From NCBI GenBank assembly GCA_963824385.1, contig CAWGPD010000001.1:1-64000 (forward strand): DNA of 64,000 nt, read 5' to 3'. Position 1 is the first letter of the stretch. The number at the start of each line of letters is the position of its first letter. The translations under genes were made by a program, and so were the position numbers. Positions 4,016 to 61,847 of the stretch are shown piece after piece. The notes under the pieces were generated by a model. It saw only the letters and a program-made list of their open reading frames with translations, did no database searches and was not told where the DNA came from. Source of the DNA: an uncultured Nitrososphaerota archaeon (lineage in GTDB: Archaea > Thermoproteota > Nitrososphaeria > Nitrososphaerales > Nitrosopumilaceae).

Positions 4016-4031
4016 TTATCATTTGTGATAA
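4016..4031. promoter_or_regulatory. TTATCA-N4-TGATAA operator (perfect copy)
   Basis: TTATCATTTGTGATAA between divergent ppsA and M50-CBS protease. Confidence 0.7.
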
Positions 4032-4083
4032 TTACACTGACAGACTAAAAGGATCATATACCCAGTAGCATCAAGGCAATATC

Positions 4084-5250
4084 ATGTCTCTTCAAATAGG
4101 CCATATCAAAGGAATCAGCATTCGTTTACATTTTACTCTAATCATAACTTTTGTCCTAATCGATTGGACATTATCAACATATTTTATGCCAGATTATGTC
4201 AAAGGTCTCAAACCTGTGAGCTACTGGCTAATGGGTTCTGCTGGAAGTGTACTTTTGTTTTTCTCAATTTTATTACACGAGTTGGCTCACTCAATGGTTG
4301 CAAGAAGGTACAACATACCTGTAAAAAGTATCACATTATTTATTTTCGGCGGAGTATCAGATATTGCAAAAGAGCCAACGGATTTTCATCAAGAGTTTAA
4401 AATGTCAATTGCTGGTCCACTTGCAAGTTTTGGACTAGGAGTAATCTTTGCTTTATTTTATTGGCTAGTCTCAAGTGAAAGTTCGAGCAGTGCCATTTCA
4501 TATCTTGTGCAAATCAAAGGAGTCTTTTTCTATGCAGCATTGGCAAACATCCTACTTGGCGCATTCAATCTAGTTCCAGCATTTCCTCTTGATGGCGGCA
4601 GGGTTTTACGAGCAGGATTGGTAAGATGGAAAAAGGATTATCATGATGCAACAAAGATTGCAACGACAATTGGTGTATTGATATCATTTGTATTCATGGG
4701 ATTTGGTTTTATGATACTCATCAACGGAGATTTTGTTGGCGGTTTATGGATATTGCTGATAGGTTGGTTTTTGCACAACGGTGCCCAGTCATACATGTCA
4801 CAATTTGAGTTAACATCTGCATTAAAAGGAGTAATTATTGGTAACATCATGAATACAGAAATAATATCTGTTAGACGTGACATGTCTCTTGATTTCATCC
4901 TAAAGAATTTTTTTATGACCAGTATGAAAAGCGAACTGCCTGTAACAGATGACCAAGGCCATCTTTTAGGAATGATCACACTAAAAAACATACTAAACAT
5001 TCCAGAAAATAAAAGAGACACTGTTACAGTCCAGGATATTATGATTCAAATAGATCATCTTGCAATAATGCAACCTAATATGGAAGTTGAAAAAGCTTTC
5101 ATACAAATGGTTCAGAAACGTGTTGGAAAGATCTTCGCATGTGACAAAGATGGAAAACTTTTAGGAGTTGTGAGTAAGACAGATATCATAGAACTTGCAA
5201 GTGAACGACAAAAATATCTTCATGTTATGAAGAAGACAAGTTTGTCATAA
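4084..5250 (+). CDS. Site-2 protease (M50) with C-terminal CBS pair
   Basis: HELAH zinc motif, NLVPAFPLDGG, TM helices, two CBS repeats. Confidence 0.92.
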   Translation: MSLQIGHIKGISIRLHFTLIITFVLIDWTLSTYFMPDYVKGLKPVSYWLMGSAGSVLLFFSILLHELAHSMVARRYNIPVKSITLFIFGGVSDIAKEPTDFHQEFKMSIAGPLASFGLGVIFALFYWLVSSESSSSAISYLVQIKGVFFYAALANILLGAFNLVPAFPLDGGRVLRAGLVRWKKDYHDATKIATTIGVLISFVFMGFGFMILINGDFVGGLWILLIGWFLHNGAQSYMSQFELTSALKGVIIGNIMNTEIISVRRDMSLDFILKNFFMTSMKSELPVTDDQGHLLGMITLKNILNIPENKRDTVTVQDIMIQIDHLAIMQPNMEVEKAFIQMVQKRVGKIFACDKDGKLLGVVSKTDIIELASERQKYLHVMKKTSLS

Positions 5251-5261
5251 AGTAGATTGGA

Positions 5262-7720
5262 ATGTCACGTCTATCTCACAAGTCTCTCACTGCTGATGAA
5301 ATCAAAAAGGCTTCAGTAGAAGATTCTTTTTTTGTCTTTGTCCACAGGAAAAACTGGAATCAATTCTCAAGAGGCAAAGAAGCGGTTAGAAGAATACGGA
5401 TACAATGAGATTGAGGAAAAAAAGATAAATCCTCTTAGAAAACTTCTGGGTTATTTCTGGGGACCAATCCCATTTATGATAGAGGCAGCTGCAATAATCT
5501 CTGCAATTATTTCCCACTGGGAGGATTTTTGGATAATAATATTTCTGCTTTGTATAAATGGAACAGTGGCATTCTTTCAGGAACACAAGGCCGACAATGC
5601 AATAAATTTACTAAAACAAAAATTATCCATTAGATCAAGAGCACTACGTGATGGCAAATGGGTTGAGCCTTCATCTCAAGAGATTGTACCAGGCGATGTC
5701 ATACGTGTTCGACTAGGGGATATCATTCCAGCAGATGCCAAACTCTTTGCTGGAGAATATCTTGATGTAGACGAGTCTGCCCTTACGGGAGAGTCACTGC
5801 CAGTGGAAAAACATGTAGAAGATGTTGCCTATTCTAGCTCCATCGTACAAAAAGGCGAGATGAACGCACTTGTTGTGTCCACAGGGATGAGGACATTCTT
5901 TGGAAAGACTGCAAAACTTGTCGGAGAGGCAAGGACAAAAAGTCATTTCCAAAAAGCATTAATGAAAATAGGAAATTATCTTATCGCACTTGCAGTAGGA
6001 CTAATCGCACTTGTTTTTCTAGTGGCAATGTTTAGACACGAGAGCCTTCTTGAAACTCTACAATTTGCATTGGTGTTAATGATTGCCTCAATACCAGCTG
6101 CGCTACCAGACTGTATTGTCAGTAACTATGGCGGTGGGTGCAACAGTTCTTGCAAAAAAACAAGCTCTTGTCAGCAAGCTGACTGCCATAGAAGAGATGG
6201 CAGGAGTCGATATTTTATGTGCAGATAAAACTGGAACGCTTACAAAAAATGATCTAAGTGTTGCAGAGCTTGTCACATTTGACAAATTTACAGACTCTGA
6301 TCTTTTGATGTTTGCTACTCTTGCATCAAGAGGTGAAGATACAGATCATATTGACAATGCAATCATTGCAAGAGCCAAGGCCTCAGATGTCTTGGAAAAA
6401 TCCAAACCTTACAAACAGCTTTCTTTCAAACCATTTGATCCAGTAATAAAAAGAGTTGAATCCAAGATAGAAGATCCTTCCGGAAAAGAATTCATGGTGT
6501 CAAAGGGCGCACCCCAATCAATACTTTCACTTGTGTTAAACAAGGATGATATCTCTGCAAAGGTAGATGAAAGTGTAAGAAGACTTGCATCTAAAGGATA
6601 TCGCTCTCTTGGAGTAGCAAGGACAAACTTGCAAGGAACATGGGAGTTTGTAGGAATTATATCATTACACAATCCACCAAGAGAAGACTCCAAGGAGACC
6701 ATCAAGACTGCCAAGACCATGGGCATTGACATCAAGATGATAACAGGAGACCATCTTGATATTGCAAAAGAGATAGCAAGAGAATTAGACCTTGGCACAA
6801 ACATACAAGATGCATCTCAAATAATTGACAAGACAGACCAGGAGATACAAAGTGTTGTTGAGCAGGCAGATGGTTTTGCACAGGTCTTTCCTGAGCACAA
6901 GTACAAGATAGTAGGAGCATTACAGGCAAAAGGTCACATTGTTGGCATGACTGGAGACGGAGTAAATGATGCCCCAGCCTTAAAGAAGGCAGATGTCGGA
7001 ATTGCAGTTTTTGGTGCAACTGATGTTGCAAAATCTGCAGCGCATATTGTTCTTACTCAACCAGGAATTTCAGTTATTATAGATGCAATCCAAGAAAGCC
7101 GCAAAATATTTCAGCGAATGAATAATTATGCCATATACAGAATCAGTGAAACTATCAGGATCCTTTTCTTTCTAGTGTTTTCCATAATTGCTTTCAGTTT
7201 TTATCCAATCACCCCTCTAATGATTGTCTTGCTTGCAATCTTGAATGATGTACCAATTATGACTATCGCTTATGACAATGTAAAGATCTCATCTAGTCCT
7301 GAGAGATGGAATATGAAAAAAGTTCTGGGAATTGCCACAGGTCTTGGTTTGATAGGCGTAGTCTCAACATTTGTTCTACTCTATATAGGAATGAATGTTT
7401 TCGAATTGAAAACAGGGCCATTACAATCATTAATTTATTTGAAATTATCCGTTGCAGGACACATGTTATTTTTTGTTGCAAGAACGCGTGGTCATTTCTG
7501 GACGGTAAAACCTGCGTTGAAGTTATTTTTGGCAATAATTACAACACAGGCTATTGCAACAATAATTACTGCCCAAGGAATTTTAGTACCAGCAATAGGG
7601 TGGCATGATGCATTATTTGTCTGGGGATATGCACTGGCATGGTTTTTGGTAGCAGACTTTGCGAAAGGTCCAATCTACAAATTGTTAGAATACAGGGGTT
7701 TGAATTTGCGCAATAGGTAG
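5262..7720 (+). CDS. Plasma-membrane proton-efflux P-type ATPase (P3A), frameshifts near 5325 and ~6105
   Basis: FWGPIPFMIE, LTGES, SIPAALP.VLSVTMAVGA, DKTGTLT, TGDGVNDAPALK, LNDVPIMTIAYDN. Confidence 0.9.
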
Positions 7721-7764
7721 GTGTTCGTGTTTGAGATTAATCACATGGTTTAAGACTCTAGAAG

Positions 7765-10069: not shown

Positions 10070-10085
10070 CAATCAAAGATGAAAA
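10070..10085. promoter_or_regulatory. Degenerate TTATCA-N4-TGATAA site upstream of AMP phosphorylase operon
   Basis: CAATCAAAGATGAAAA ~12 nt before TATA-like GATATAT. Confidence 0.4.
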
Positions 10086-10130: not shown

Positions 10131-11675
10131 ATGCAATTAAAAGTTGACATCGTAGGGATAGAATCAGGAGGAAAACCAATAGTTTTCCTAAATAAACATG
10201 ATGCCGACGAGGTCGGTGTTACTGCATTAGGAAGAATCATAATAAATTCAAAAAGAAAAGAGACAACTGCCATTGTTAATATTTCTACAACTCATGTCAA
10301 GAAAGGTTACATCGGTGTAAATGACGAGGTAAGAAAAAAACTTAATACTTAGACAAAACTCCGTAGTAGAAGTTGAAGTTGCAACATTTCCAAAATCACT
10401 CCAATTCATACATCATAAATTAACAGGAAAAAGTTTGCTCTACCATGAAATTTTAGAAATAGTAAAAGACGTGGTTGAAGGAAATCTCAATGACGGAGAG
10501 ATTGCAGCATTTGTCACTGCACTTCACATGCAAGGGCTTGATCTTGATGAAGCAGTAAGTCTATCATCTGCCATGGTGGCAACAGGAAAACAATTGAATT
10601 TACACAAAAAAATAATTGCAGACAAGCATAGCATTGGCGGAGTACCTGGAGACAAGACAACTCTATTGGTCGTGCCAATTGTGGCAGCTGCAGGAATAAC
10701 AATTCCAAAAGCATCGTCAAGGGCAATTACGTCCGCTGCTGGTACTGCAGATAGAGCAGAGGCAATAATGCCAGTAAACTTTGGAATTGAAGAAATGCAA
10801 TCCATTGTAAAAAAATGTAACGGGTGTATTGTGTGGGGAGGCTCACTAGAACTTGCTCCTGCCGATGACATTTTTGTCAGAACAGAATATTCTTTATACA
10901 TTGACCCACTTCTCTTGCCTTCGATTATGAGTAAAAAGAAATCAGTGGGTGCAACTCATCTCATAATAGACATACCTACAGGAAGAGGAGCAAAGGTCAA
11001 GACAATAGATGACGCAGATTTCTTGGCAAAGGAACTCATAGAACTTGGAAGAAAACTTGGCATACATACCCAATGTATTTTAACGCATGGAGAGATGCCA
11101 GTTGGATACACATTGGGCGCAGCTTCGAGGCAAGAGAGGCACTTTCCGTATTGATGAACAAGTCCAACGTTCCTGATTTAATAGACAAGGCATGTCACCT
11201 TGCAGGTTCATTATTTGAGATGACAGGAAAAAGTAATGGGTATCATCTAGCAAAGGAAATTCTGCGTACTGGCAAGGCAGAAAAGAAAATGAGAGAGATA
11301 ATCGATTTGCAGGGTGGAAATCCTAGAATGAATCTTGATGATTTTCAAATTGGTCAAGAGGTAAAAACTGTAAAATCTAAAAAATCAGGTCAAGTTCTAT
11401 GGATGGACAACATATCACTTGTAGAAATAGCAGAGAGCCGCAGGTTCTCCAAAAGACAAGGGGGCGGGAATCATACTTAACAAAAAAGAAGGTGACAAGG
11501 TAAAAATCGGAGACGTGTTGTTTACTATTTATGCAGAAAAATCGCGAAAGTTATCTAGTGTTGAAGAGTGCTATCAGAGTTAGAACCAATAGGCGTTGGA
11601 GAAAGAAAAGAGATGTTAATACACAAGGTAAAAGAATCACCACTTGTCAAAAGGGCTTTTGTAATAGATAGATAA
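10131..11675 (+). CDS. AMP phosphorylase (thymidine phosphorylase family), several frameshifts
   Basis: N-terminal beta domain, [39 protein letters not shown]-terminal PKDKGAGI; upstream of R15P isomerase and RuBisCO. Confidence 0.9.
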
Positions 11676-13856: not shown

Positions 13857-13872
13857 TTATCACATGTGATAT
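13857..13872. promoter_or_regulatory. TTATCA-N4-TGATAA operator (1 mismatch)
   Basis: TTATCACATGTGATAT upstream of CBS gene. Confidence 0.65.
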
Positions 13873-13914: not shown

Positions 13915-14681
13915 ATGGGATCGAAGATAGACGAACTTGTAGTTGGCAATTACATGTCAGAGTATCCCATATCTGTCAAGCCAGAAATTCCATTTGAAAC
14001 GGTTGTTGATTTTATGAATGAGAGTAAATTTTCAACATTAATTGTCATGGATGAGACAAATGCATTACCTATTGGGGTTTTTACAGAAAGAGGAATCATC
14101 AAGCATGTGGCATCTGGTAAAGCTGATGAACCAAAGCATCAAACAAGAACTAATCCAGCCATTTTTTTCAGTCACTCCAGACACTACTATAATTGAGGCT
14201 GCAAAATTGATGATATCGAAAAAGGCAAGAATTTTGGTATTTGCAGATACAGACAAACTAATTGGAACTATAACAGCATCTGACATGCTAAGAGCATTTA
14301 GCGAAACAGACAGAACCTCCTAGCCTTGAGAAAGTGATTAGTAAGACAGTTTATCATTGTCCATTTGAAACCACGATTTTAGATGCAGTAAAACTCCTCG
14401 ATGAAAAAAACATCGGCAGCATACTAGTAACACGTGATTCATTGCATGGCATATTTACACAAAGAGATCTGGTCAGAGTTCTTGCAAAGGGAGAAAAACT
14501 GGATAGTAATGTAGGGGACTATTCTTCATTTCCACTTGTTACCGCAAAAAAATATATTTTGGCAAATGAGGCTGCAAAGATAATGACATCAAAGAAGATC
14601 AAAAGATTAGGTTTGACAGAGAACAATTCTGTTGTGGGAATTGTTACTGCAAGAGATGTTGTTGACGCATATCAGATGTAG
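13915..14681 (+). CDS. Four-CBS-domain protein (frameshifted into three ORFs)
   Basis: GVFTERGI, GTITASDM, GIFTQRDL, GIVTARDV CBS motifs. Confidence 0.8.
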
Positions 14682-18495: not shown

Positions 18496-18771
18496 ATGGT
18501 CGAATCATCACTTACCAATTATGTACTTGTTGCCGCACATGTAATAGTTGGATTGATTCTCATATTCTATGCCATTAAAGCGTTCAAGAGAACAAAATAT
18601 TTCCCAATGGCCCTTCTAGTAATAGGATTCACACTATTGGTCCTTGGAGAAACTGTAATTGAATACATATTTGCATTTGCAGGAGAGAATTTGGGAAAAA
18701 TAATTGAAGAAGGATTTGAGATATCTGGATTCATCGTACTAATCATAGCAGTCAAGAAAGCTAGGACATGA
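18496..18771 (+). CDS. Three-TM small membrane protein paired with HTH regulator
   Basis: Three hydrophobic helices; ATGA overlap with downstream wHTH. Confidence 0.7.
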   Translation: MVESSLTNYVLVAAHVIVGLILIFYAIKAFKRTKYFPMALLVIGFTLLVLGETVIEYIFAFAGENLGKIIEEGFEISGFIVLIIAVKKART

Positions 18772-19109
18772 CAAATGATGATGAGATCCTAACGGTACTA
18801 GGGGATGAATATAGTAGAAAGATTCTCTCAATACTTGCAAAAAATGAGATGAATACACAAGAAATATCTACAAAACTTGGCATTCCTTCTTCGACAACTT
18901 ATAGGAAGATAAAAAATCTAGAAACTCTTGTACTTATAAAAAAGACCAAGGTCATTCGTACACTTGAAGGTCTTGACGAAAGTTACTACAAGAGTCTAGT
19001 CTCAGGAATAGAAGTAAAGTTCCGAGATGGCGAGATGTCATGTAAAATTGAAAAATTCACCATGGATGAAAAGATACAAAGACTGTGGGAAAAATTCTCA
19101 GAAAAGTGA
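18768..19109 (+). CDS. ArsR-like winged-helix transcription regulator
   Basis: LGDEYSRKIL...EIS..LGIPSSTTYRKI..L. Confidence 0.85.
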   Translation: MTNDDEILTVLGDEYSRKILSILAKNEMNTQEISTKLGIPSSTTYRKIKNLETLVLIKKTKVIRTLEGLDESYYKSLVSGIEVKFRDGEMSCKIEKFTMDEKIQRLWEKFSEK

Positions 19110-19643: not shown

Positions 19644-19669
19644 TACCATTCTCGTTTATGAAAATGATA
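19644..19669. promoter_or_regulatory. 26-bp palindromic operator copy 3
   Basis: TACCATTCTCGTTTATGAAAATGATA. Confidence 0.7.
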
Positions 19670-22381: not shown

Positions 22382-22455
22382 TGCCGCCGGCAAGACTTGA
22401 ACATGCGACAGCTCGGTCTTCAGCCGAGTGCTCTCCCGGGCTGAGCTACGGCGGC
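22382..22455 (-). tRNA. tRNA-Phe (GAA), intronless
   Basis: GCCGCCG acceptor stem, CTCGG-CTGAAGA-CCGAG anticodon arm, TTCAA T-loop. Confidence 0.95.
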
Positions 22456-25422: not shown

Positions 25423-25438
25423 TTATCATATTTGATAG
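25423..25438. promoter_or_regulatory. TTATCA-N4-TGATAA operator (1 mismatch)
   Basis: TTATCATATTTGATAG just upstream of P1B ATPase. Confidence 0.6.
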
Positions 25439-30321: not shown

Positions 30322-30337
30322 TTATCAGAAATGATAA
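30322..30337. promoter_or_regulatory. TTATCA-N4-TGATAA operator (perfect copy); second weaker copy at 30375..30390
   Basis: TTATCAGAAATGATAA; TTATCATCAATGAAAT ~11 nt before uspA TATA. Confidence 0.7.
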
Positions 30338-30431
30338 TTAATCAAGTCGTACAAATGCATAAGAAATATTCATGTTATCATCAATGAAATTGATAAACTG
30401 ATTTAATTCCAAGCAATATCAAAAATTACTC

Positions 30432-34026: not shown

Positions 34027-34102
34027 ATCTAAAAATATATTTAAAATCAAATTATGATTTTCATTCGTGATTATCAAGGATATAATAAAAATTTCACAGT
34101 TC

Positions 34103-34444: not shown

Positions 34445-34483
34445 GATGTTGTGTAATGCACTTTTTCATATAATGATCAGGTA

Positions 34484-34502
34484 TGCATTGCAATACAATG
34501 CA
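34484..34502. promoter_or_regulatory. Palindrome TGCATTG-N5-CAATGCA upstream of wHTH gene
   Basis: Read directly. Confidence 0.45.
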
Positions 34503-36812: not shown

Positions 36813-37057
36813 ATGTTAAGTCAATTGTACATTTCAATCATATAAGAAATTAGGTAAAACCATCACGACTGAGAATAAAAGTTGAGAACAGAGATAATCT
36901 GTTTATTAATAGGACATCCTGCCTAAATTTAAGATTAGAATGAATTTGAGTACTGAAAAAATCATAATAAATAAACTTGAAAGTATTTTGGAAAAGTCAA
37001 AAAGTGTAAAACAAAGTTCTGATGTTAAAGAATTATCAAATTAGGCTTTAGAAGTCT

Positions 37058-38311: not shown

Positions 38312-38443
38312 TAATGAATATCTAAAAACACTATACTTAAGTTAATTCTAAAATTTCATTTGTGGGTATACACAGACATTATAATAAAAACCAAATTTGA
38401 GAATTAGCGAAAACCTGTTAAGCAGACTTGTACAAATTGCCTC

Positions 38444-38932: not shown

Positions 38933-38975
38933 TTTTTTATAATTATAAAAATATTACAAGATAAAAATCTTGAAT

Positions 38976-39884: not shown

Positions 39885-39890
39885 CAGTAG

Positions 39891-48825: not shown

Positions 48826-49142
48826 GATGTATGTTTGATCAGGAAAAATCAGTTTTGTCATGATTCTTTCAATGAAATTACTCCCCATTCAAAATAAAAA
48901 AACTAAGGAAAAAAGTTTTGTAACAAGTCTTACAGGACTAGAGTATTCAGTGGTTTTAGGCTAGTGAGATTTGGTGACCAGCAAGAGTACAAAATATGCA
49001 CAGTGCATAATATTTACTCCAGATATCTCGCGTACAGCCACATTTACAGTCACATTTTTCTTAGTTTCAATTTTTTATCCTATATATCATAAGACTGACT
49101 GGGGTATTTGTAAGATTATCTAATTTATCAATTTGACAAGGT

Positions 49143-49590
49143 CTAGTGAACAATGGTAACAGGACAGGCAGCGTGTTCTGATACATGCCTTGCAGTACTT
49201 CCAAGTCTTTTCAGAGATGAAACACCGGTTGAGCTTTCTGCTTCCCATTACCACTAGATCAATTTTTGATCTTTTTACCTCTTTTAAAATAGCATCGGAT
49301 ACGTCATCATGGACAATTTTATAAAATGTCTTTGCGCCCTCCTCTCTGCATTTTTCTGTAATTTTTTTCATCTCCTTTTCACCCTGCTCTGTTAGAGATT
49401 TTACAACCTGTTGATAATTCATAACTGCAGTTCCTGAAAAAACAGAGTCACTTATTGGATAGTAGACAGGAATTACCATCAAGAGTTTCAGATCAGCATT
49501 AAAATTTCTTGCAATATCTTTTGCCAATTCTAATGCCTTTTTTGAAAGAGGTGAGCCATCATATGGGACCAAGATATTTTTTAGTAGCAA
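49143..49590 (-). CDS. Universal stress protein (frameshift ~49225)
   Basis: ILVPYDGS, DLVVMGSR; LGSTA..V...AACPV in shifted frame. Confidence 0.85.
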
Positions 49591-49860
49591 TTAGAACAGT
49601 TCCTTGACTTTACTTTTGTATACTTCAACAATTTGTCCAAATTCTGTATAGTCACTAGCAGATGGAATTTGCATTCGCATTGCACATTGTGATACAAAGA
49701 CTGTCAACGCGTTTCCCACCATCATGTTAAAAGTCATCTCAGAGAGGTCTTTAACCGCAGGAAAAGCCATTTTAAGAAATGGCAGGTAGATCTTTGTCTG
49801 GTTTAACATTAGTTCCATGTTCTTCTCAATTGCTGCTTTTACCTCAGGCTGGATAGTCAT
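49591..49860 (-). CDS. Conserved hypothetical protein
   Basis: Clean 89-aa ORF in operon. Confidence 0.7.
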   Translation of the reverse strand: MTIQPEVKAAIEKNMELMLNQTKIYLPFLKMAFPAVKDLSEMTFNMMVGNALTVFVSQCAMRMQIPSASDYTEFGQIVEVYKSKVKELF

Positions 49861-49861
49861 T

Positions 49862-50074
49862 CTAATTCACCGAGACTACCTGGTACGGTTTTGATTGATA
49901 GTGAGTAGAGCATAGAAACACCATTTCTCCATTTAACACCTTGGCTGTAATCGAGATTCCATTTAATTCTTTTTTGCATATATGGCATGTAAGCGGTTTG
50001 ACATCAGATTTTATGAATTTTTTTTCATGTGAAAAATACAAGTCCTGAGTATGGAGCTCTCTGCCATATTTCAT
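49862..50074 (-). CDS. Small zinc-finger protein
   Basis: CHIC...LCSTH. Confidence 0.6.
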   Translation of the reverse strand: MKYGRELHTQDLYFSHEKKFIKSDVKPLTCHICKKELNGISITAKVLNGEMVFLCSTHYQSKPYQVVSVN

Positions 50075-50132
50075 AAAAGACAGTTTCAATATTATTAAAG
50101 TGATCTTCATTATCAAGATAGAGTTCAAGTGG

Positions 50133-50148
50133 TTATCAGTTCTGATAA
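50133..50148. promoter_or_regulatory. TTATCA-N4-TGATAA operator (perfect copy)
   Basis: TTATCAGTTCTGATAA 12 nt before TTTTATA. Confidence 0.72.
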
Positions 50149-50188
50149 TCCTGACAGAAATTTTATACTAAATTAATGGATTATTGTC

Positions 50189-50638
50189 GTGACCGTGACT
50201 CGCGATATAATGTCAAGTAAAATAGTCACAATTGAATCAAATGTATCATCTACTGAAATTGCAAAGATCATGGACAAAAACAAGGTAAGCAGTATCATAA
50301 TAACAAAAGATCAAGTGCCAGTTGGCATAGTAACGGAGAGAGATATGGTATCAAAGATTGTTGCACAAAACAAGAAACCGTCTGAAGTAAAGACTGCAGA
50401 GATTACAGCCTCACCTCTTTTCATAGTAAGTTCACTTACACCCACAGATGAGGTAGCAAAGAAAATGGTAGATAAAAAAATTAGGCGAGTTGTGGTAATG
50501 GATTCTGACCAGGCACTAGGAATCATAACAGTGACAGATTTTGTAAAGCACTTGCATGAGATGCTTGCGGATTCTGAAAATTACAACAAGGTTCTATATC
50601 AGCGTCTAATAGAAGACTGGGAATACTGGATGTCCTAA
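50189..50638 (+). CDS. CBS-pair protein
   Basis: GIVTERD, GIITVTD. Confidence 0.9.
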   Translation: MTVTRDIMSSKIVTIESNVSSTEIAKIMDKNKVSSIIITKDQVPVGIVTERDMVSKIVAQNKKPSEVKTAEITASPLFIVSSLTPTDEVAKKMVDKKIRRVVVMDSDQALGIITVTDFVKHLHEMLADSENYNKVLYQRLIEDWEYWMS

Positions 50639-50703
50639 TCAGGACATGAATTTGTTAGTATAAAATTTGAAATTAATGTATGAATCCAAGGATGGTCCCG
50701 GCA

Positions 50704-50719
50704 TTACCAGATATTATAA
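50704..50719. promoter_or_regulatory. Degenerate TTATCA-N4-TGATAA site
   Basis: TTACCAGATATTATAA 12 nt before TTTTTAT. Confidence 0.5.
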
Positions 50720-50761
50720 TAGGATGTCAAGTTTTTATGTATCAATTTCATACTGGAACCA

Positions 50762-51205
50762 TTGGATAATTTTTCTGCCAAAGACATAATGAAGAACCCG
50801 GTTGTTACAGTTGATTCTGCCATGTCAGTTATGGATACAGCAAAGATAATGGATGATGCAGGCATTGGCTGTGTTGTTGTCATAGAGAACAATATTGCAG
50901 TGGGTATAGTAACAGAGCGCGATTTTGTCAAAAGGGTTGTATCTCGTGCAATTCCACTGACAACTCCAATAAAAAAAGTAATGTCGTCTCCGTTGATTGT
51001 AGTAAATCCAGAAGAGAACATTTGGGAAGTGGCAGAACTTATGAAACAGAGAAGGATTCACAAGGTTCCAGTGGTATATCAGGATCTCCTAGTTGGAATT
51101 GTAACAGCAACTGACTTGACCAAACTATGCAGCATTGGCTCTGATTCAGAGATGCGAAGGATAACAGACCAGATACTTTTGCGAATGAAGCCTGCAGACA
51201 AGTAA
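50762..51205 (+). CDS. CBS-pair protein
   Basis: GIVTERD, GIVTATD. Confidence 0.9.
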   Translation: MDNFSAKDIMKNPVVTVDSAMSVMDTAKIMDDAGIGCVVVIENNIAVGIVTERDFVKRVVSRAIPLTTPIKKVMSSPLIVVNPEENIWEVAELMKQRRIHKVPVVYQDLLVGIVTATDLTKLCSIGSDSEMRRITDQILLRMKPADK

Positions 51206-51211
51206 TTTAGT

Positions 51212-52074
51212 TTAATTTTTAACTATAGCGCGTACAATGTCAGTCTTTGTTACAATTCCTACCAATAGCTTGCCCTTGACAACTGGCAGTCCGCTGATTC
51301 CATTACTTATGCATCAAGTGGGACGACATTTGATACATCGTCTGATACATCTACAGTTATTGGGTTTGATGTCATAATATCAGTTGCAATAAATGTCAAA
51401 AGATAACTTCCAGTACGTTTTGAGCGATACTCTTTTGGATTTGTAGCCATCCTATAGTTTTCAACTTCGGTTCAATATCCAGATTGTTTTAGCCATAGAG
51501 GCATCTTGGCAGGTATGAAATCTCTGTGAGTGATAATTCCAACAGGCTGTCTGTTTCTTTCTACAACTACTCTAGATATTTTATTGTTGACAAGAACACT
51601 TTCAACATATAGTAATGAATCTGCTGGTTTTACTGTAATTACATCTCTTGTCATGATTTTAGAGACTAGTAATGGTTCTGTGGCTTGTGTTAAAAATACG
51701 GATGCCAGTACTCTACTTGTAATAATTCCAGCTAGTGTCTTGTCTTTGTGTAGTACTATAACAGAACTGATTTTATTATCAAGCATTAGTTTAGCACAGT
51801 CGTATAACGTTGCACCTTCTGGAACAGTAACAAGGTCTTTAGACATAACATCAGATACGCGTGTAGCCTCTAGTGGTTTTGCATCAATTCTATAGATTGC
51901 CTTTACCAGGTCTTTTTCTGTAAGCATGCCTACTGGCTTGTCTTTTTCTGATACCATAAGTCGGCTAATCCTGTGCTTGAGTAAAATTGCTCTTGCATCC
52001 AAGAGGCTTGTTCGTGGGGTTACTACAATTGTTTTTTTTATTACTTGATTTATGCTGTCATTTTTTAGTTTCAA
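51212..52074 (-). CDS. Multi-CBS-domain protein (frameshifted)
   Basis: GMLTEKD, GIITHRD, final GIVTKTD in shifted frame. Confidence 0.85.
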
Positions 52075-52115
52075 TAATTTTCATATATTTTGGGTGGATT
52101 ATAGGCTTTTTACAA

Positions 52116-52131
52116 ATCTCACTTGTGATAA
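52116..52131. promoter_or_regulatory. Degenerate TTATCA-N4-TGATAA site
   Basis: ATCTCACTTGTGATAA ~12 nt upstream of minus-strand TATA. Confidence 0.55.
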
Positions 52132-52278: not shown

Positions 52279-52861
52279 TCAAGTTTGTATTCTTTGCCAA
52301 TCTTTAACTAGTAATTCTAAACGAATTACTTCATCTTTATCCAACTCACAACTATGCGCAATAAGATTTCGAACTTTATTGAATTGAGAAAGTGTTTGTT
52401 GCATTGCCTTTTGGCTTCTAATTTTGTCACAAAATAGTTGCCAATTAGATTCTATCACAAATAAGCTCTCCAAAATTTGTATAAGTTAATTGATCTTCAT
52501 TAGATGGTATTACCAAGGTCGTTTCCTTTTCAGCCTCTTGTAACTTTTTTACATTATCCTTTATTCCTTGTGGAACTCCTTTTTCCCACCAATCAGTTCC
52601 ATATTCTTCTACAAGGGTTTCTTTTATTAATCGTCTTACAGAATTTTCAAAACAAAAATAGATCACATAAAAATCAGCCATCCTTCTGGCACTTTTTCTT
52701 ATATCTGCATCAAATAACTCAGATTCTACATTCTCGTCCTTGGTCACAGTCTGCATATGACCAATATCGATACCTTGTTTTTCTAATTTAGCCAAGTCTG
52801 TTTCCAACATAAGATTTCTCATCCCAAATAATTTTACTTCGTCAGATTTTTTTTCACTCAT
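52279..52861 (-). CDS. Swt1-like HEPN RNase domain protein (frameshift ~52465)
   Basis: FENSVR..I, WW, YT.FGEL, NW..F, RNLIAH (RxxxxH). Confidence 0.8.
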
Positions 52862-53465
52862 TCAAGATATGCTCTTTCAAACTTTTGAAGATAGCATTAA
52901 AAACTTCGATATCAGTCGTGGGTGGTAGATTAAGATTAATTGTGTAATTAAGCCCTAATTTCGTAGTGAGTTTTTCTTTTTGCTGATGCTGATACAAATC
53001 AGGCAATTGTTTCGAGGTTTCTTTTACAATAGGGTCGGATTCAAAATCTGCTAAATCACATAATACTTTAAACGTACCTGCAACATTTGGAACAGTTTTA
53101 TCATCATCACCAACCCCAAGTATTGATTTCAATTTTGCCTCAACTTGTTGCTTAGTTAGTCTGTGTGCATAGGCATTAGCGGTAAAGAGAACATTGTAAG
53201 ATTCCTTGATTCTCTTTGATAATACTTGTCTTGAAATAGAATCATCTCTAAAATCTTTATAATGTTCTGTAGGAGTATTTGCAGGATCCAAGAATCCAAG
53301 ATTTTTCAGCAATGGGATCATAGCATTGTAACTTGATGATTTTAAACCAAGCATTGTTGAAATAAAATCACGATTAAATTTAGTTGGAACATTTGCAGTT
53401 TTAATTGCCCCAAAAAGGTTTGCCACTGACTTATATGCATTAACATATGGCGGATAATTTACCAA
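52854..53465 (-). CDS. DUF5343-like protein
   Basis: I..A.VP.KF..DF, LK.LGFLD....PT..Y, TF..LC.LADF, L.Y.INL.LP.T.D.EVFNAIF. Confidence 0.7.
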   Translation of the reverse strand: MVNYPPYVNAYKSVANLFGAIKTANVPTKFNRDFISTMLGLKSSSYNAMIPLLKNLGFLDPANTPTEHYKDFRDDSISRQVLSKRIKESYNVLFTANAYAHRLTKQQVEAKLKSILGVGDDDKTVPNVAGTFKVLCDLADFESDPIVKETSKQLPDLYQHQQKEKLTTKLGLNYTINLNLPPTTDIEVFNAIFKSLKEHILNE

Positions 53466-53834
53466 CGTTGTTACTATATTTTTACTACGATAAATAGATC
53501 ATGGTAATTATACAATAATTCTTTCATTTTCCATATCAAAATGAATTACCATGTTTAGATCTAAGTATCTCATTTATTTCATAATTTTTGTAATTTTGAA
53601 CTTTCAAAATCAAACAGTACTTTATATTCCATAAAATATGATTTACTAATCAAATCAAAAATCTTCATAGGATCCTTCTTGAGGTGAACACTAGTAAAAC
53701 GATATACTTGATGCCTGAAATTATCTAGTTTAGATTGCATTTCTCTAATTTTAAGGATTTTAAGTCGCTATTGTTTGAAAATAACCAAATTCATACAAGG
53801 ATTATTATTTAATACCATATTTCCAAACCCCTAG

Positions 53835-54492
53835 ATGTATAGCGGAGAGCGTGAAGTCCAGTCAAAGAGAAAAGCCCTTGCTGTCCTACAAGACGAGATA
53901 AACAGAATTCTTAATGCTGTAAGAGACCTCTCAATTCTGCCTGGCTTGATCATCAAGGCAGACAAGTCTGAGATAAAACAGACACTTGAGCGAATAAAAA
54001 ATACCGAAGATGAAGTTGAAGCCCTCCGTAGAAAAATCACTAGAGATATTCAGACATTGGAGGGCTTATGATGCATAGGGAGAATATTTTAAACTCGGCA
54101 TATACCATGGATGAGATTGCAGGATACATCACAGGCATTGCATTTAGGCTCTCAAACATCAAGGCTGCAACACTCAAAAAAGAAAATCTTGACAAGAGCA
54201 TTACAGAACTAGTAGAACTAGCAGTAGACCAGATTCAAAAAATTAATGAAATAATCAGGGCTCTAGCAAACAACAACAGTATAGTGGCAATTGACTTGGC
54301 ACATGAAGCACAAAAAATAGAGAGACAGGTAGACAACAAGTACAGGGCATTAAGCATTAGAATACTTGATGAAATTAGCACGCCAAAAGAGGGCTGTTGC
54401 TTCTTAAAGACATAGTAGAGGGAATAGAAGAAATGTCAGACAAAGTTCTCCAGGTTTCAGACTCGTTTATTTTGCTTGCCCTAAGCCTATAA
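53835..54492 (+). CDS. DUF47/PhoU-like phosphate transport regulator (frameshifted)
   Basis: Helical repeats E.E...RR.I, ER.VD..YR. Confidence 0.8.
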
Positions 54493-54556
54493 AATATTAA
54501 AAAACATTTATTCCGTATACTATTAGACTCCACCAGATTTTTTTCTAGCCTGCTCT

Positions 54557-55228
54557 CTACATCAGATTAAATGCTTTCAACACTGAATCTACTGATGCCT
54601 GTATCACATTGTATGAAAGTTCTCCCAAAGTCGGATTTTCAGACATGCTACCTGCATACGGATCACATGTAGGTGTATTTGGAAGATGTCCAACACCGCT
54701 AAAGTATTTTTGTTGATGTGCTTGCAGTTCACAGTTGATGTTAGTCATTGGAACTAGGGGACCTGCATCATTTGGCGCTACTGCCAATTCGACTTTGTAT
54801 GTAAAGATTATTCCAGTGTGCTTGTAGACTGTAAATTTTGTTGTCTTGTCTGTGAATCTGTAATTGTTGTTAATTCCCCTGTCTATTTTTATGATATGTG
54901 CACAGTTGTAGTTCTTTGATAGCTGGTCTTTTACACTGATTGTTGTAAAACTGATTCCATGATACTGTACTTCGTTTTGTATTGTTGGTAGTATTTGTGG
55001 ATCCATGTGACTGTCCATCGGAGTAAAGATGCAAAGGTTAGACTGCGGTATTGTTGTTACTGTCTTGACTCCCCACCCAGCATATGTACTAGTTGATGGA
55101 GGGTTTGCAAATACGGATACGGTTGTGGTTGTTGGAATGAACGTGCTTACATTTAATGCAAATACTGGACTCATTCCAAGTGCTACGATGCAGATTAGTG
55201 CTAGTGAAGCGATTTCTCTTATTTTCAT
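54557..55228 (-). CDS. Secreted hypothetical protein
   Basis: Signal peptide, T-rich N-terminus, paired Cys. Confidence 0.7.
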   Translation of the reverse strand: MKIREIASLALICIVALGMSPVFALNVSTFIPTTTTVSVFANPPSTSTYAGWGVKTVTTIPQSNLCIFTPMDSHMDPQILPTIQNEVQYHGISFTTISVKDQLSKNYNCAHIIKIDRGINNNYRFTDKTTKFTVYKHTGIIFTYKVELAVAPNDAGPLVPMTNINCELQAHQQKYFSGVGHLPNTPTCDPYAGSMSENPTLGELSYNVIQASVDSVLKAFNLM

Positions 55229-55345
55229 ATTACCCGTCCCATGTGATTGAATTCTACAACCATTGTAATAATATGGTAATTAACCTGTATATAACTAGTA
55301 ATAATGAACAAAACCAAGGGTACTAGATAGTTACAAGATAACTAC

Positions 55346-55600
55346 TTGACTGATATACCATACATGACAGGATATGTACTTGCAAGCAATTACCGAAAGA
55401 AAGTGTTGTTAGCATTAAAAGAAAAGGCATTAACGCCTAACGTTATTTCTGAGAAAACTGGCATTTATCCAACACATGTTAGTACAACTTTGACACAATT
55501 ATCCAAGATGAGTATCGTAGTTTGTCTAACTCCTAAGCTAAAGAAAGGAAAGTTATATGATCTTACAAAAGAAGGTAGAGGAATATTGAATTTTATCTAA
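55346..55600 (+). CDS. Small winged-helix (MarR/ArsR-like) regulator
   Basis: S.YR.KVL..L.....TP..IS.......VS..L..L...V.C......G.LY.LT..G. Confidence 0.85.
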   Translation: MTDIPYMTGYVLASNYRKKVLLALKEKALTPNVISEKTGIYPTHVSTTLTQLSKMSIVVCLTPKLKKGKLYDLTKEGRGILNFI

Positions 55601-55715
55601 CATCACAAATGAAGACATAGTCTTTAGACATTCATTAAAAATTATCACATGCATACACGAGATTCTTGAAGTAGAATTTAATTTCTCGATATTCAAACCC
55701 ATCTTGTTCTAGCAA

Positions 55716-55871
55716 CTGTTTGAGATTTTGGGTATGACAACTATAACCTACAAGTTCCAAATCACTATACCAAAGAAGGTAAGAGAGAAACACAGTCTTC
55801 AGGAAGGAGACTCGATCATGTTCTTAGAGGAAGATGGTAAAATCTATCTTACAAAAAGTACAGATGTTTGA
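55716..55871 (+). CDS. AbrB/MazE/SpoVT-family DNA-binding protein (not in ORF track)
   Basis: LGMTTITYKFQITIPKKVREKHSLQEGDSIMFLEEDGKIYL; start codon uncertain. Confidence 0.75.
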   Translation: MFEILGMTTITYKFQITIPKKVREKHSLQEGDSIMFLEEDGKIYLTKSTDV

Positions 55872-55877
55872 TCATTC

Positions 55878-56183
55878 TCATGATTTTTTCTTCAAGTAAT
55901 CCTCAAGAAATCCCAAAAATGCACTACCATCTTTGACTCCTTTCTCATAAGATACCTTTTCCATGTTGTAAAGATGTTTCAAAAAGTCCAAGTCTGCTTT
56001 TGAAAACCATTCCACCATCTCCATAAAATACTGGATTGCCTTCTCATCACTGTTGGTGCGTTTATCATCTAAAGTAGAATCTATGTTTGGCGTTTTAGTC
56101 ACTACCAAATCACCTAAATCCTCCACTAGCAAACCGCTCTCCACCAAGATCGTGTCGTAGATACTGTTCCGTATGATTTCCAA
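55878..56183 (-). CDS. Hypothetical protein (start probably shorter)
   Basis: ORF overlapping upstream gene. Confidence 0.4.
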   Translation of the reverse strand: MEIIRNSIYDTILVESGLLVEDLGDLVVTKTPNIDSTLDDKRTNSDEKAIQYFMEMVEWFSKADLDFLKHLYNMEKVSYEKGVKDGSAFLGFLEDYLKKKS

Positions 56184-56358
56184 AATCTACTGTAACAATA
56201 AAGAACCCCTTACTTGGAACACCGTCTTTGAAAATAACTAAATCATTTTCCCAAGTATAACCAAGTACTGTTCCTTTTCTTCCATCTCTTGTTTTTACAG
56301 AATCTCCTTCCCAATATACAACTGGAAATCCTGCGATGGATGGAAAATGTTGCTTCAC
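56110..56358 (-). CDS. Small SH3/KOW-like hypothetical protein
   Basis: GD.V.T.DG..G.V....V.VDFG beta pattern. Confidence 0.5.
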   Translation of the reverse strand: MKQHFPSIAGFPVVYWEGDSVKTRDGRKGTVLGYTWENDLVIFKDGVPSKGFFIVTVDFGNHTEQYLRHDLGGERFASGGFR

Positions 56359-56478
56359 GTATTATAGCATGTTTAGTATAACTTAAAATCATCTATTATA
56401 AAGTTTAGTGATAATTAATATTTGAATTCAAATGGTAATACACATTTTCAATATGTATTAGAACGTATTTTTGATATA

Positions 56479-58054
56479 TTATCCCAAACTGCCCCCAGCC
56501 CACCTAGAGCCCTTACTTACAAGCCATGCCAAGTATGCATATCCTGCAGCGTGCAATGCATCGTCATTGGTTTCCTCTGGATGAGTATACTTAACATAGC
56601 TTTTACCAGAAGATTCCGCCGTTTCAGATTCTATGCATGTAAAATGTTCAATCATCCAGTCCATATTATTGGGATTTTTATATGGAATATGGATTCGTGG
56701 AATGCCGTCAGGGTAGTTTGCGTTATCTTCAGGGCGTTTTATTAGATCTATTATGGTCTCAATTACCCAGGTTCTATCTACATTAATTTTATGATCTGAA
56801 TTAATTATTTCATATGGAACTTCAGAATTATACCTGTAATGGCACTTGTAAATTCTAGGTCCATATTTTTTTGAAAGCTTCTCAACCTGTCTTGTACCAC
56901 CACCAGAGTCCATCACAATTTGATCAACTTCAAACTTGTCAATTAATTCAGAAACCATATCAGTCTTGGGTTTCAGTAGAACTTTCTGTAATCTTTGTTA
57001 CATACAATAACTTGAATCTTGGGACATCTTTGTTGACCAGCTGCCAAATCCAGCCTACAGTGAACGCTTGAGTACCACCACCCCAGTCTACTCCCATAAA
57101 TACTAGAAGATCATGATCAACTAATTCATGTGGAGTGAAATCAAGATTTCTGTCAAATAATGTACGAATCTCTTTTTCAAGTAATGGTTTGACATTTCCG
57201 CCATACCACAAACCCTCAACCTCATTTGCAAATCCTCGTGGCGGATAGGTTTTTCGTTTGGATTCTATATCTTCTTGTAATCTGTCTGGCGCCATCTCCT
57301 GAGAAAGATGATACGAACTTATTTTTGAGAGGGGGTTTTTTGCAATCCAAGTTTTTGTTTTTAAATCATATTCTTTTTGATCTCCCGTATGCCACAACTT
57401 CCACCAGCCATCGCCTGTTATGCTTCCAGTACCAACGTGCACACATTTCCCAAATTTTGATTTTGCAAGTGCCTCTTCTAGTACAGGTATAGATTCTACA
57501 TTTGTTGACTGGATTTCATCGACAACTGCAAAATCTGCAGGAATAGACCTAGCGGCTTCAAAGTCTTGCTGGGCAGAGTACATGAACAAGTGTGAACCAT
57601 TTTTAAAAGACAGCCATGAAACGTTGCCCTTCTTGTGCACTAGTCCTTGAAGTATCGGTGATTCACCAATGGCACGACTACGTACTCTCATTTTTGAAAA
57701 CACGGAAACGTGGCTTTTACGGTCTGAGAGGTATATTCCTACAGTATTTGGATTTTTTTCCAGATTAAAAAGCAACCAGTTTATGGTAAATTCTGTAATT
57801 TCCATTTGTCTTGGTTTTACAATCATAATTTTCTTGTTTTGATCAGAATAGATTTGCTTCAGATATTCTCGTCCCTCAAAAGAAAATTTTTTGCCCTGAA
57901 TTTTTCTAACTGTTGTTGTCCAGTCTATGAGATTGTCAGGAGTATTTGGAAGTGTTACGGGCATCACAAATTTTTTCTCGAATATTTTTTTTATTCTAGC
58001 AATTTCCCTTCTTGCAAGTAGATTATGCGCCGCCTTCCACCTAAGCTGCGACAT
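56479..58054 (-). CDS. Phage terminase large subunit (GpA-like), frameshift ~56960
   Basis: KPRQMEITE Walker-A-like, AVVDE Walker B, nuclease GVDWG, DSG, NDDALHA. Confidence 0.8.
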
Positions 58055-58520
58055 GGTCAGTCCCCATCTTTTGCTTGAAGAGATCATCGGTTTCTGTTTG
58101 TACTATAGTATCAGTAGTTGGCGTGCATTCAAGATTATTCTTCTCAAGATATAGTTTTAAGATAAGTTCCTTTGTCTTACGATATTCTGAATATAGCCAC
58201 CTTTTTTTATGAATTGGCCCTGATGATTTTATTGCTACATCTAGTTCGGCGCTTCGTTTTTTCATTTCAAGTATTTCATTGTCTAATTCTAAAATTGTTC
58301 TACCATTTGATAGTCTGCAGTTTTTAAAAAACTCAGGTCCCTGTACAGAAATGTATTTCTCATGCCAAATTCTAAAGTATCGCCTGACCGTTTTTACGTT
58401 TATTCCTGTCTCATATGCAACTCTATCAGGCTTGTACCTTTGCTCAAAATATGGCCAGAGTTGTCTTTCGATCTCACTCTGTTCAGCCAATGTTGGCCTT
58501 CCGTTTCTTTTTTCAGACAT
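58041..58520 (-). CDS. HTH + coiled-coil protein, candidate terminase small subunit
   Basis: GRPT, VA.ETGINVKTV.RYF; overlaps TerL start. Confidence 0.55.
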   Translation of the reverse strand: MSEKRNGRPTLAEQSEIERQLWPYFEQRYKPDRVAYETGINVKTVRRYFRIWHEKYISVQGPEFFKNCRLSNGRTILELDNEILEMKKRSAELDVAIKSSGPIHKKRWLYSEYRKTKELILKLYLEKNNLECTPTTDTIVQTETDDLFKQKMGTDHVAA

Positions 58521-58801: not shown

Positions 58802-58817
58802 GCATCATATCTGAAAA
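58802..58817. promoter_or_regulatory. Degenerate TTATCA-N4-TGATAA site
   Basis: GCATCATATCTGAAAA 12 nt before TTAAAT. Confidence 0.4.
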
Positions 58818-60881: not shown

Positions 60882-60948
60882 AGAATATTTGTTATACTAT
60901 TGATTGACTAAAAAGGATTCTTATTTATAAAAATCCATTCTTAAACCC

Positions 60949-61025
60949 AAGGTTGTACTAAAAAATTATTAAAATCTGAAAATGCTCCACAAGGATTTCA
61001 TTTCGTGCCTGTTATGAAATATTTC
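60949..61025 (+). repeat. ~77-bp direct repeat, copy 2
   Basis: AAGGTTGTACTAAAAAATTATTAAAATCTGAAAATGCTCCACAAGGATTTCATTT...GAAATATTTC. Confidence 0.8.
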
Positions 61026-61034
61026 ACAAAAAAT

Positions 61035-61796
61035 CTAGCTTACAGTTACAGTTCCAATTCGCCATGGGTGAATTGTACAATAGTAATGATACACTCCCGG
61101 ATTGTCAAACTTGTAAGAAAATGTATCTCCAGTATTTAGTAGGCCGCTGTTAAACATTGGAATTATATTTCCGTTTGAATCTATACTTTGGATATCATGT
61201 TGTATAGTATCTTGATTTTGCCATGTAACAGTTGTTCCAGGAATTATCTCCAAGTTAAGTGGCAAATAGAACCCAGTACCTGCAGTTACAGAGTTTCCGT
61301 TTGGAATCAGGATTTTAGCATTGTTTGATACACTAACAGTTGGAATGGGATCACTTCCAACTAAAAGATAATTTAGAAAATATTTCTGGGCATTGTCTTG
61401 CATGTTGGCTGTTACCTTCCACATGGAATCACCTCCTGTTGCATAGAGTCTTGTTCCATCAAGAGAGACAGTAAATGTATCCTGGGAGACAGTTTGCGCA
61501 GTGCCCTGGCCATGAAATGAACCGTCGTTGTTGTATGTAAAATTCCACGAGTCGCCAGTAAATCTGGCTACAAAAATTCCATTACTTCCCTCCACTAGAA
61601 TTGCACCATTTCCTATAGTTGTTGGATTGACAAGAGAGAGTCGCATGCTTGAAGTATACAAAGCTGGATTATCGCCATTAATCATTGCAGCCCCACTGCC
61701 TTTCATGGAATAAGTAGAATCTGCAAAAGCAAAACTAGATGAGACTGCCACTAGACCTAATATGATTCCCAAAACTAGGGCTCTCATTTCTAACAT
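61035..61796 (-). CDS. Secreted protein with C-terminal plastocyanin-like cupredoxin domain
   Basis: Signal peptide; GTTVTW.N.D...H, G.Y.YYCTIHPW. Confidence 0.85.
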   Translation of the reverse strand: MLEMRALVLGIILGLVAVSSSFAFADSTYSMKGSGAAMINGDNPALYTSSMRLSLVNPTTIGNGAILVEGSNGIFVARFTGDSWNFTYNNDGSFHGQGTAQTVSQDTFTVSLDGTRLYATGGDSMWKVTANMQDNAQKYFLNYLLVGSDPIPTVSVSNNAKILIPNGNSVTAGTGFYLPLNLEIIPGTTVTWQNQDTIQHDIQSIDSNGNIIPMFNSGLLNTGDTFSYKFDNPGVYHYYCTIHPWRIGTVTVS

Positions 61797-61831
61797 ATAG
61801 TACTAAATACACTATATAATTAACATATACA

Positions 61832-61847
61832 TTATCAGACATGATAA
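61832..61847. promoter_or_regulatory. TTATCA-N4-TGATAA operator (perfect copy)
   Basis: TTATCAGACATGATAA centred between two divergent TATA boxes. Confidence 0.72.

Follow-up and report, generated by a model that had tools for sequence, protein, structure and literature searches.

Results

The Island and Its Two Palindromes

The stretch of DNA analysed here (the window; 64 kb, positions 1 to 64,000 of contig CAWGPD010000001.1) belongs to the 1.68-Mb genome of an uncultured Nitrososphaerota archaeon (G000) and carries an island of genes for stress response and energy saving. Close homologs bear names that point to Ca. Nitrosotalea. The island comprises genes for CBS proteins, universal stress proteins (Usp), Hsp20, an ADP-forming acyl-CoA ligase, malate dehydrogenase, and P1B- and proton P-type ATPases, and further holds PhaC, phosphoenolpyruvate (PEP) synthase, AMP phosphorylase, ribose-1,5-bisphosphate (R15P) isomerase, form III RuBisCO, Nramp, and a cyclase. 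A palindrome with the core TTATCA-N4-TGATAA, hereafter box A, recurs in its promoter regions (extended consensus from oriented sites of the genus: GA-TTATCA-N4-TGATAA-TC). An earlier note on this DNA had described box A as the site of a global activator. New here, and unseen in that note, are a second palindrome (box B) and two candidate regulators encoded in the island, a winged helix-turn-helix (wHTH) protein, P0002, and a predicted ribbon-helix-helix (RHH) protein, P0001 (Table 1).

Table 1. Boxes, promoter elements, and candidate regulator genes in the window. Offsets (+) are counted after the box; PWM, position weight matrix score; orthologs, orthologous promoters with a site.
Feature	Position	Strand	Context
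Box A, perfect	4016..4031		Between frameshifted PEP synthase (-) and M50-CBS protease (+); TATA-like element absent at +11..15
Box A, weak	10070..10085		Before AMP phosphorylase-R15P isomerase-form III RuBisCO operon; PWM 4.0; doubtful
Box A, 1 mismatch	13857..13872		CBS gene ATG (13915) at +43
Box A variant TTCTCA-N4-TGAGAA	18278..18293		Between cupredoxin fragments and DUF7521/wHTH-paralog genes; PWM 15.9
Box A variant, weak	19649..19664		TATA-like at +14; HTH_45 gene ATG (19705) at +41
Box A, 1 mismatch	25423..25438		TATA-like at +12; P1B-ATPase in-frame GTG at +42
Box A, perfect	30322..30337		Upstream partner of 30375; TATA-like absent at +11..15
Box A, 2 mismatches	30375..30390		TATA-like at +12; Usp GTG (30432) at +42
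Box A, 2 mismatches	34058..34073		TATA-like at +12 toward CBS gene 33162-33938
P0002, wHTH protein, 113 aa	34103..34444	-	Model pLDDT 87.5; likely box A binder and activator (predicted)
TATA-like element TTATAT of wHTH promoter	34468..34473	-	Starts 11 nt after box B
Box B, TGCA-N-TGC-N3-GCA-N-TGCA	34484..34502		Ends 40 nt before wHTH ATG
Box A, weak	36860..36875		Before ADP-forming acyl-CoA ligase (34665-36812); PWM 4.6
Box A, degenerate	38353..38368		Divergent Usp (TTG 38311 at +42) and Hsp20
Box A, perfect	50133..50148		TATA-like at +13; CBS gene GTG (50189) at +41; orthologs 11/11
Box A, 2 mismatches	50704..50719		CBS gene TTG (50762) at +43; orthologs 14/17
Box A, 2 mismatches	52116..52131		CBS gene TTG (52074, -) at +42; orthologs 11/12
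Box A, degenerate	58802..58817		CBS-zinc-finger gene ATG (58860) at +43, upstream of RHH gene; orthologs 13/16
P0001, RHH protein, 193 aa	59430..60011	+	Predicted N-terminal RHH and C-terminal domain; likely box B binder, predicted sensor
Box A, perfect	61832..61847		TATA-like both sides; divergent cupredoxin-domain and nucleotide-cyclase genes

Box A Is Rare, Intergenic When Perfect, and Specific in Spacing

All four perfect copies that the earlier note had reported were confirmed in the window, compared to 0.02 expected; none of 100 shuffles reached four, in line with its rough estimate of well under one chance match in 64 kb. Together with the two one-mismatch copies, likewise confirmed, six sites lie within one mismatch (0.73 expected; 0/100 shuffles). 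At ≤2 mismatches, 16 sites were counted versus 11.0 expected (10/100 shuffles), so that this count alone is not significant. The earlier note would have abandoned the motif had it been equally common in coding DNA; throughout G000, all eight perfect copies are intergenic, four of them in the window, and of the one-mismatch copies, 10 are intergenic and 12 lie in coding DNA. The half-sites are specifically spaced at N4, with 8 copies in G000 versus 0–2 for each of 12 other spacings, and the half-site ranked top against 120 shuffled half-sites (mean 0.6). Variant sites with TTCTCA, TTTTCA, or TTACCA occur outside the island. Candidate sites at 12482 and 25750 were rejected, as both lie within coding DNA. 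An Rfam scan of the window returned only a tRNA, and box A is therefore not part of a known RNA family. A look-up of RNA holders for window 30000-39900 came back empty, which speaks neither for nor against the motif.

Among the weaker copies proposed earlier, those at 30375, 34058, 50704, and 52116 have a TATA-like element where the geometry predicts one, and the one at 10070 remained weak, with a strong site in only 1/7 orthologous promoters. The sites at 38353 and 58802 score below zero in the PWM, yet their geometry fits and the orthologous promoters carry strong sites (for 38353, 7/8 at Hsp20 and 10/12 at Usp). Orthologous promoters of 34058 have a site in 10/27, with the geometry in all 10; for 36860, no ACD ortholog at ≥55% was present among the relatives' loci compared. 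Two variant sites, 18278 and 19649, had been overlooked.

Box A Promoters Have an Activator-Type Geometry

The geometry was determined for sites with ≤1 mismatch from 60 loci of genus relatives and the window, oriented to the next gene (247 rows; 25 sites without a nearby gene and 7 inside genes at the orientation step). TATA-like elements start at +12, +13, and +14 with 39, 63, and 73 matches, respectively, compared to 0–12 at positions outside +12 to +15. A start at +11 to +15 was found for 133 of the 247 oriented sites versus 5–22 in 12 control windows, and the first in-frame ATG falls at +41–43 in 96 of them. Counting distinct sites only, the geometry fits 123/180, spread over 14 gene families. 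Genes internal to operons lack the site (rbcL 0/8, R15P isomerase 0/6, and h89 0/11).

Within G000, the fixed TATA spacing stated in the earlier note applies to 27 of 41 intergenic sites (PWM ≥ 10), which have a TATA-like element at +11 to +15 on one side; it fails for the perfect copies at 4016 and 30322. Among the controls, 4/42 coding matches and 12% of random intergenic positions had such an element. That one box may serve both divergent genes, as also claimed, agrees with the TATA-like elements on either side of 61832. Positions −6 to −1 of the TATA are A-poor, as expected for weak TFB-responsive elements (BREs), with a mean A count of 1.36 in 110 box-A promoters versus 2.30 in 271 G000 controls, a noisy set set against targets that are related. 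Most box A sites end ~5–7 nt upstream of the expected BRE and not over the TATA or the start. The order is box A, a TATA box, and then a likely leaderless start; the geometry is of the activator type, and we consider the predicted role of box A as an activator site very likely.

Box A Accompanies the Same Gene Types across Relatives

Family f1 is taken here as Nitrosopumilaceae and f15 as Nitrososphaeraceae, both names being inferred. A perfect copy of box A is present in 53/63 genomes of the genus. Its relatives have box A clustered in islands, in which gene order is shuffled and the box stays with Usp, CBS, and Hsp20 genes. Family f7, whose loci have 45–49% GC, carries the variant TT(C/A)TCA-N4-TGA(G/T)AA upstream of these gene types as well, where a TATA once more lies at +12 to +15 (46 matches in 93 oriented sites), and seven of its genomes hold 3–21 box A matches each versus 0–1 in the control. 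A site with ≤1 mismatch precedes Usp, CBS, or Hsp20 genes in 129/278 cases in genus loci, 21/44 in f7, 23/86 in other f1 genera, and 0/11 in f15. Box A is almost certainly a real, order-wide promoter element.

Box B Precedes the Winged-Helix Gene

Box B was first met in a palindrome search of an f15 island without box A, in the form of TGCA-N-TGCA arrays. In G000, the copy before the wHTH gene is the only one at ≤1 mismatch, and by itself it is not significant (29/100 shuffles). Its conservation was assessed at ≤3 mismatches, leaving out open reading frames (ORFs) that lacked the anchor motif or lay close to the end of a locus. Box B precedes 37/39 Nitrosotalea wHTH rows, 32 of them at 39–40 nt, and the two misses are paralogs; it further precedes 9/11 rows in other f1 genera and 0/18 in other families. 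An f4 locus with both regulators (L100) has a degenerate TGCA array before its wHTH gene.

The f15 genus g56 differs in its use of the box. Nine loci around or beside the RHH gene, which is present in 8/9, contain 37 B boxes and neither A boxes nor a wHTH. In this genus, box B directly precedes Usp, CBS, and Hsp20 genes, and of 28 oriented arrays, 15 have the ATG at +39/40. The median number of B boxes is 7 in 15 RHH-positive g56 genomes versus 1, 1, and 0 in the three genomes without RHH, and in genome G146, all 13 exact 14-mers fall inside the 30 kb that surround the RHH gene. Seven f7 genomes together gave one box B match. Single box-B-like matches in family f9 were treated as chance because they were not intergenic sites in five fetched loci.

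The Candidate Regulators and Their Lineage Profiles

Islands clustered from nine genomes contain the winged-helix protein in 9/9 and the RHH protein in 7/9. Among the 63 genus genomes, 33 have both regulators (median of 5 perfect A sites), 22 have neither (median of 1), and 4 and 4 have a single one; the 37 with a wHTH ortholog average 5.4 perfect sites and the 26 without average 1.2. The genus cannot separate the two regulators because they travel together. The distant lineages do: f7 has seven wHTH homologs in 6/18 loci plus one distant RHH, and an RHH ortholog in 0/7 genomes, and g56 has an RHH protein that aligns full-length to P0001 at 47%, with wHTH paralogs that fall outside the P0002 clade in a quick tree. 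Island wHTH homologs beside A boxes recur in f7, f4, f9, f11, and f14. Genome G009, with A boxes and seemingly no wHTH, was rejected as a counter-example, since box B and the first wHTH codons lie at two contig ends, i.e., at an assembly gap.

In lineages without box B (L102, L110, L112, and L114; families f9, f11, f14, and f4), an A-like site immediately precedes the wHTH homologs, a hint that these may be autoregulated in such lineages. Paralogs of the RHH-sensor family were found at G000:C4:468630-469541, C1:288593-289674, and window 403-940, and two of them adjoin wHTH paralogs, which suggests that a regulatory module of two genes recurs, with further boxes.

The N-terminus of P0001 matches Pfam CopG_antitoxin at E 3.5e-5, below the cut-off. 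In the structural model (pLDDT 73), helices 24-37 and 41-52 are formed, and the strand is not formed in the monomer. The C-terminal domain matches VirS (Z 6.9; root-mean-square deviation 3.4 over 116 aligned residues), CdpR (6.5), H-NOX (5.3–5.5), TRAPPC3 (5.3), and DmpR (4.8); on the model, it may resemble V4R/H-NOX/Bet3 folds and is predicted to be a small-ligand sensor. H128, H135, H136, H141, and W147 are invariant in an alignment of 35 sequences. A sequence search of the PDB gave no significant match for P0001, and a protein atlas placed it only in Nitrososphaerota clusters without assigned names.

Further Features of the Island and Genome

Several island genes are split by frameshifts, which applies to PEP synthase (1661-3888), the proton P-type ATPase (5332-7720), AMP phosphorylase (10131-11480), a CBS gene (13915-14681), and the P1B-ATPase (25459-27714). 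As several relatives carry these genes whole, the frameshifts are probably assembly errors rather than decay. Between 9171 and 13820, an ATP-cone/Mrr-like/AF1548-C gene points away from the divergent genes for AMP phosphorylase, R15P isomerase, and form III RuBisCO; in the published account of one Nitrosotalea, RuBisCO and AMP phosphorylase are reported, not within a stress island (PMC5767755). Behind the box at 18278, a DUF7521 membrane gene is paired with a wHTH paralog (18496-19109), a pairing also seen in distant families (L066, L079, L101, and L111). A tRNA gene lies at 22382-22455. An ORF at 56960-58520, amid unannotated ORFs (52445-58520), has a weak terminase gpA-like ATPase match and is possibly a mobile-element remnant.

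A separate 25-kb contig contains, at G000:C5:9975-12950, a diverged second copy of part of the island (window 49120-52131) with its own A boxes, either a duplicate or a second strain. Outside the window, the A boxes at C1:221258, C4:156682, and C5:103 adjoin genes for TPR, nitroreductase-like (read by eye), and PAC2 proteasome-chaperone proteins. A perfect box A at G000:C3:315590 lies 183 nt before a TFB paralog; its link to the hypoxia-induced "TBP stabilizer" of a sponge study was rejected because a site scoring ≥10 was found in only 1/18 other homologs. An AsnC-domain gene near C3:179684 was discarded as a target, its start being ~400 nt from the site.

Discussion

A Proposed Two-Tier Cascade

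The boxes, their spacing, and their conservation are observed features of these genomes, from which we infer binding and signal. Going by the lineage profiles, the RHH sensor would bind box B and switch on the wHTH gene, and the wHTH protein would bind box A of Usp, CBS, Hsp20, and related genes; we consider this assignment of proteins to boxes fairly probable. The geometry and the A-poor BREs suggest that box A promoters would be activated by TFB recruitment. In many cases, an A box precedes the RHH gene, which may provide feedback, and gene content and literature point to oxygen or energy limitation as the putative signal. Genus g56 seems to have no middle tier, and its RHH protein would control the targets itself, via box B. 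The reading as a whole, with box A bound by the wHTH protein and the wHTH gene turned on via the RHH protein at box B, probably in low oxygen, has about an even chance of being right. More tentatively, it may represent an undescribed low-oxygen regulon of the dormancy type in ammonia-oxidising archaea and non-nitrifying relatives, convergent with DosR and FixLJ-FixK2, in which a one-component sensor of the RHH type, its His-lined pocket being V4R/H-NOX-like, would activate a winged-helix master via a TGCA array, rewired between lineages (two tiers in f1, sensor-only in g56, and wHTH-only in f7).

For the global activator of the earlier note, this means that a shared predicted activator site upstream of BRE/TATA is upheld by the fixed spacing, the ATG peak, the A-poor BRE, and the order-wide conservation, and that the term global is not. 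The site marks an accessory stress island and regulon, and some species of the genus are without it.

Several observations weigh against the proposed cascade. The protein assignment rests on two distant lineages because the regulators co-occur within the genus, and orthology of the f7 wHTHs is weak (33–46% identity; 0/7 pass E 1e-18; sister to the P0002 clade with SH-aLRT 82–86 in a quick tree). The f15 genera g15 and g42 have a ~40% RHH homolog, yet mostly lack the 19-bp box B within one mismatch. Genome G050 (99% complete, 50 contigs) has the wHTH, box B, and A boxes and no RHH ortholog (best E 2e-25). The fold matches of the P0001 C-terminal domain are middling (Z 4.8–7.0), and P0001 has neither the H-NOX heme motif YxSxR, absent throughout the 35-sequence alignment, nor a Cys cluster, which places it outside the heme H-NOX proteins. 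Two perfect sites, 4016 and 30322, are without the TATA geometry. Related genomes are not independent, and loci were selected through a motif match (f7 and some of the genus) or from where the RHH gene lies (g56 and other f1); the geometry counts overstate independence because loci are related and partly picked by motif match. As for the signal, the sponge-symbiont genes discussed below were matched to the island by family name only, and a rise of Nitrosopumilus maritimus Usp/CBS proteins at 32 °C has been read by its authors as heat-stress proteins (PMC12974425).

Weighing the Alternatives

Hypoxia is favoured as the signal by analogy in gene content and with a published symbiont transcriptome, and heat is a rival. 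In hypoxic sponge-symbiont Thaumarchaeota, UspA, HSP20, CBS, and transcription regulators are reported to go up in two symbionts, one of which also upregulated lactate/malate dehydrogenase (LDH/MDH) and a TPR protein (bioRxiv 10.1101/2023.02.27.530229), and published FixK/FNR regulon tables include Hsp20, CBS, UspA, and a heavy-metal P-type ATPase (PMC2908626). The same boxes and cascade could instead respond to heat or, more generally, to the state of energy or adenylates. Adenylate-binding types (CBS, Usp, ATP-cone, and AMP phosphorylase) account for many of the targets, P0001 has no heme motif, and UspA and CBS proteins of N. maritimus are described to appear or rise at 32 °C, with ammonia starvation and Cu stress without effect (PMC12974425). 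However, hypoxic symbionts raise the same gene types, the island content resembles FixK/FNR sets, and warm, fast-growing cultures may be oxygen-limited too; a heat or energy signal seems rather unlikely.

The remaining alternatives concern the proteins. If the assignment were swapped, RHH would bind box A and the wHTH protein would bind box B before its own gene, a position typical of autoregulation. G050 retains box B and wHTH without an RHH ortholog, an A site lies directly upstream of RHH genes in 5/15 other-f1 loci, and RHH presence also tracks A counts within the genus. Yet g56 combines RHH and many B boxes with neither A boxes nor a wHTH ortholog, f7 is rich in A boxes without an RHH ortholog, G050 carries six perfect A boxes without RHH, and the RHH protein CopG is reported to recognise TGCA motifs (PMC3413123), all of which makes a swap improbable. 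A third, genome-wide regulator, either another wHTH paralog or an unrecognised factor, would leave the island wHTH and RHH as mere members. G000 indeed has five further wHTH-family matches with similar recognition helices, the variant sites extend outside the island, genomes without both orthologs still hold 0–3 perfect sites, and the candidates considered were those that recur in the islands; we nevertheless consider such a regulator quite improbable, as site number is near background without a wHTH ortholog (median of 1 versus 5) and island wHTH homologs sit beside A boxes in five families. A role of box A as a repressor or architectural site, as the off-spacing of 4016 and 30322 and some tandem sites might indicate, is very improbable given that most sites end upstream of the expected BRE and that the BRE positions are A-poor, as described for TFB-RF1 promoters (PMC5937170).

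Comparison with Known Systems

The preferred reading, a wHTH activator at box A under an RHH sensor at box B, yields a pair of DNA boxes, two small proteins as candidates, and a list of targets. Thaumarchaeota carry out much of global nitrification and persist in low oxygen by unclear means, and their regulon-level control is little worked out. We found no description of either box or of the cascade, nor of box A as a thaumarchaeal motif as the earlier note had suspected, in the literature searched, which omits most subscription papers and supplements.

Box A resembles the Thermococcales glycolytic motif (TGM), TATCAC-N5-GTGATA, which is bound by TrmBL1/Tgr and defines an archaeal global regulon, in its TATCA half-site of the same orientation. 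In contrast, the spacing is off by 3 bp, P0002 is without a sugar-binding domain, and the targets are others; as only the N4 spacing is enriched in G000, box A does not fall within the TGM. The DosR regulon of mycobacteria has a comparable target set and logic. The FNR box, TTGAT-N4-ATCAA, has its half-sites in the opposite order to box A. With the alphaproteobacterial FixLJ-FixK2/FNR systems, the island shares the Usp, CBS, Hsp20, and P-type ATPase targets of CRP/FNR regulons, a proposed sensor tier over a second transcription factor, and genes clustered with the regulator, as far as these are described (PMC2908626). Unlike those systems, the candidates include no CRP/FNR protein, histidine kinase, or response regulator, and the promoters are archaeal TBP/TFB promoters: P0002, 113 aa long, consists of one wHTH (HTH_20/TrmB/IclR-like, with every match below the cut-off) whose sole FixK2 match (E 0.79) covers the HTH only, and P0001 is a predicted RHH protein.

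OxsR of Haloferax volcanii is a single winged-helix stress regulator activating from upstream of BRE/TATA, as predicted for P0002, but its reported motif is CG-rich (CGGnCGnGCG) and it has an essential conserved Cys (PMC9426492), whereas box A is AT-rich and no invariant Cys was found in an alignment of 19 P0002 sequences. CopG has the RHH fold predicted for P0001 and contacts an element spanning two TGCA motifs, as in box B, but is described as a small plasmid repressor (PMC3413123); in P0001, a predicted ligand domain of ~130 aa is added, and the geometry of box B is activator-type. TFB-RF1-type activators bind just upstream of weak BREs, and for TFB-RF1 itself (PF1088; Pyrococcus furiosus), a palindrome at a fixed distance upstream of a weak BRE/TATA, conserved in relatives, is reported with the motif TCTGAANTTCAGA and two known target operons (PMC5937170). 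Box A differs in its motif, TTATCA-N4-TGATAA, in having tens of predicted targets among stress genes, and in the second tier proposed above it. If the preferred reading is true, an RHH protein as a ligand-sensing activator would be unusual, and the lineage-specific rewiring offers a natural test case for the evolution of regulatory cascades. By analogy, the cascade would resemble TFB-RF1 in mechanism and FixLJ-FixK2 in logic, i.e., a FixLJ-FixK2-like cascade assembled from unrelated parts.

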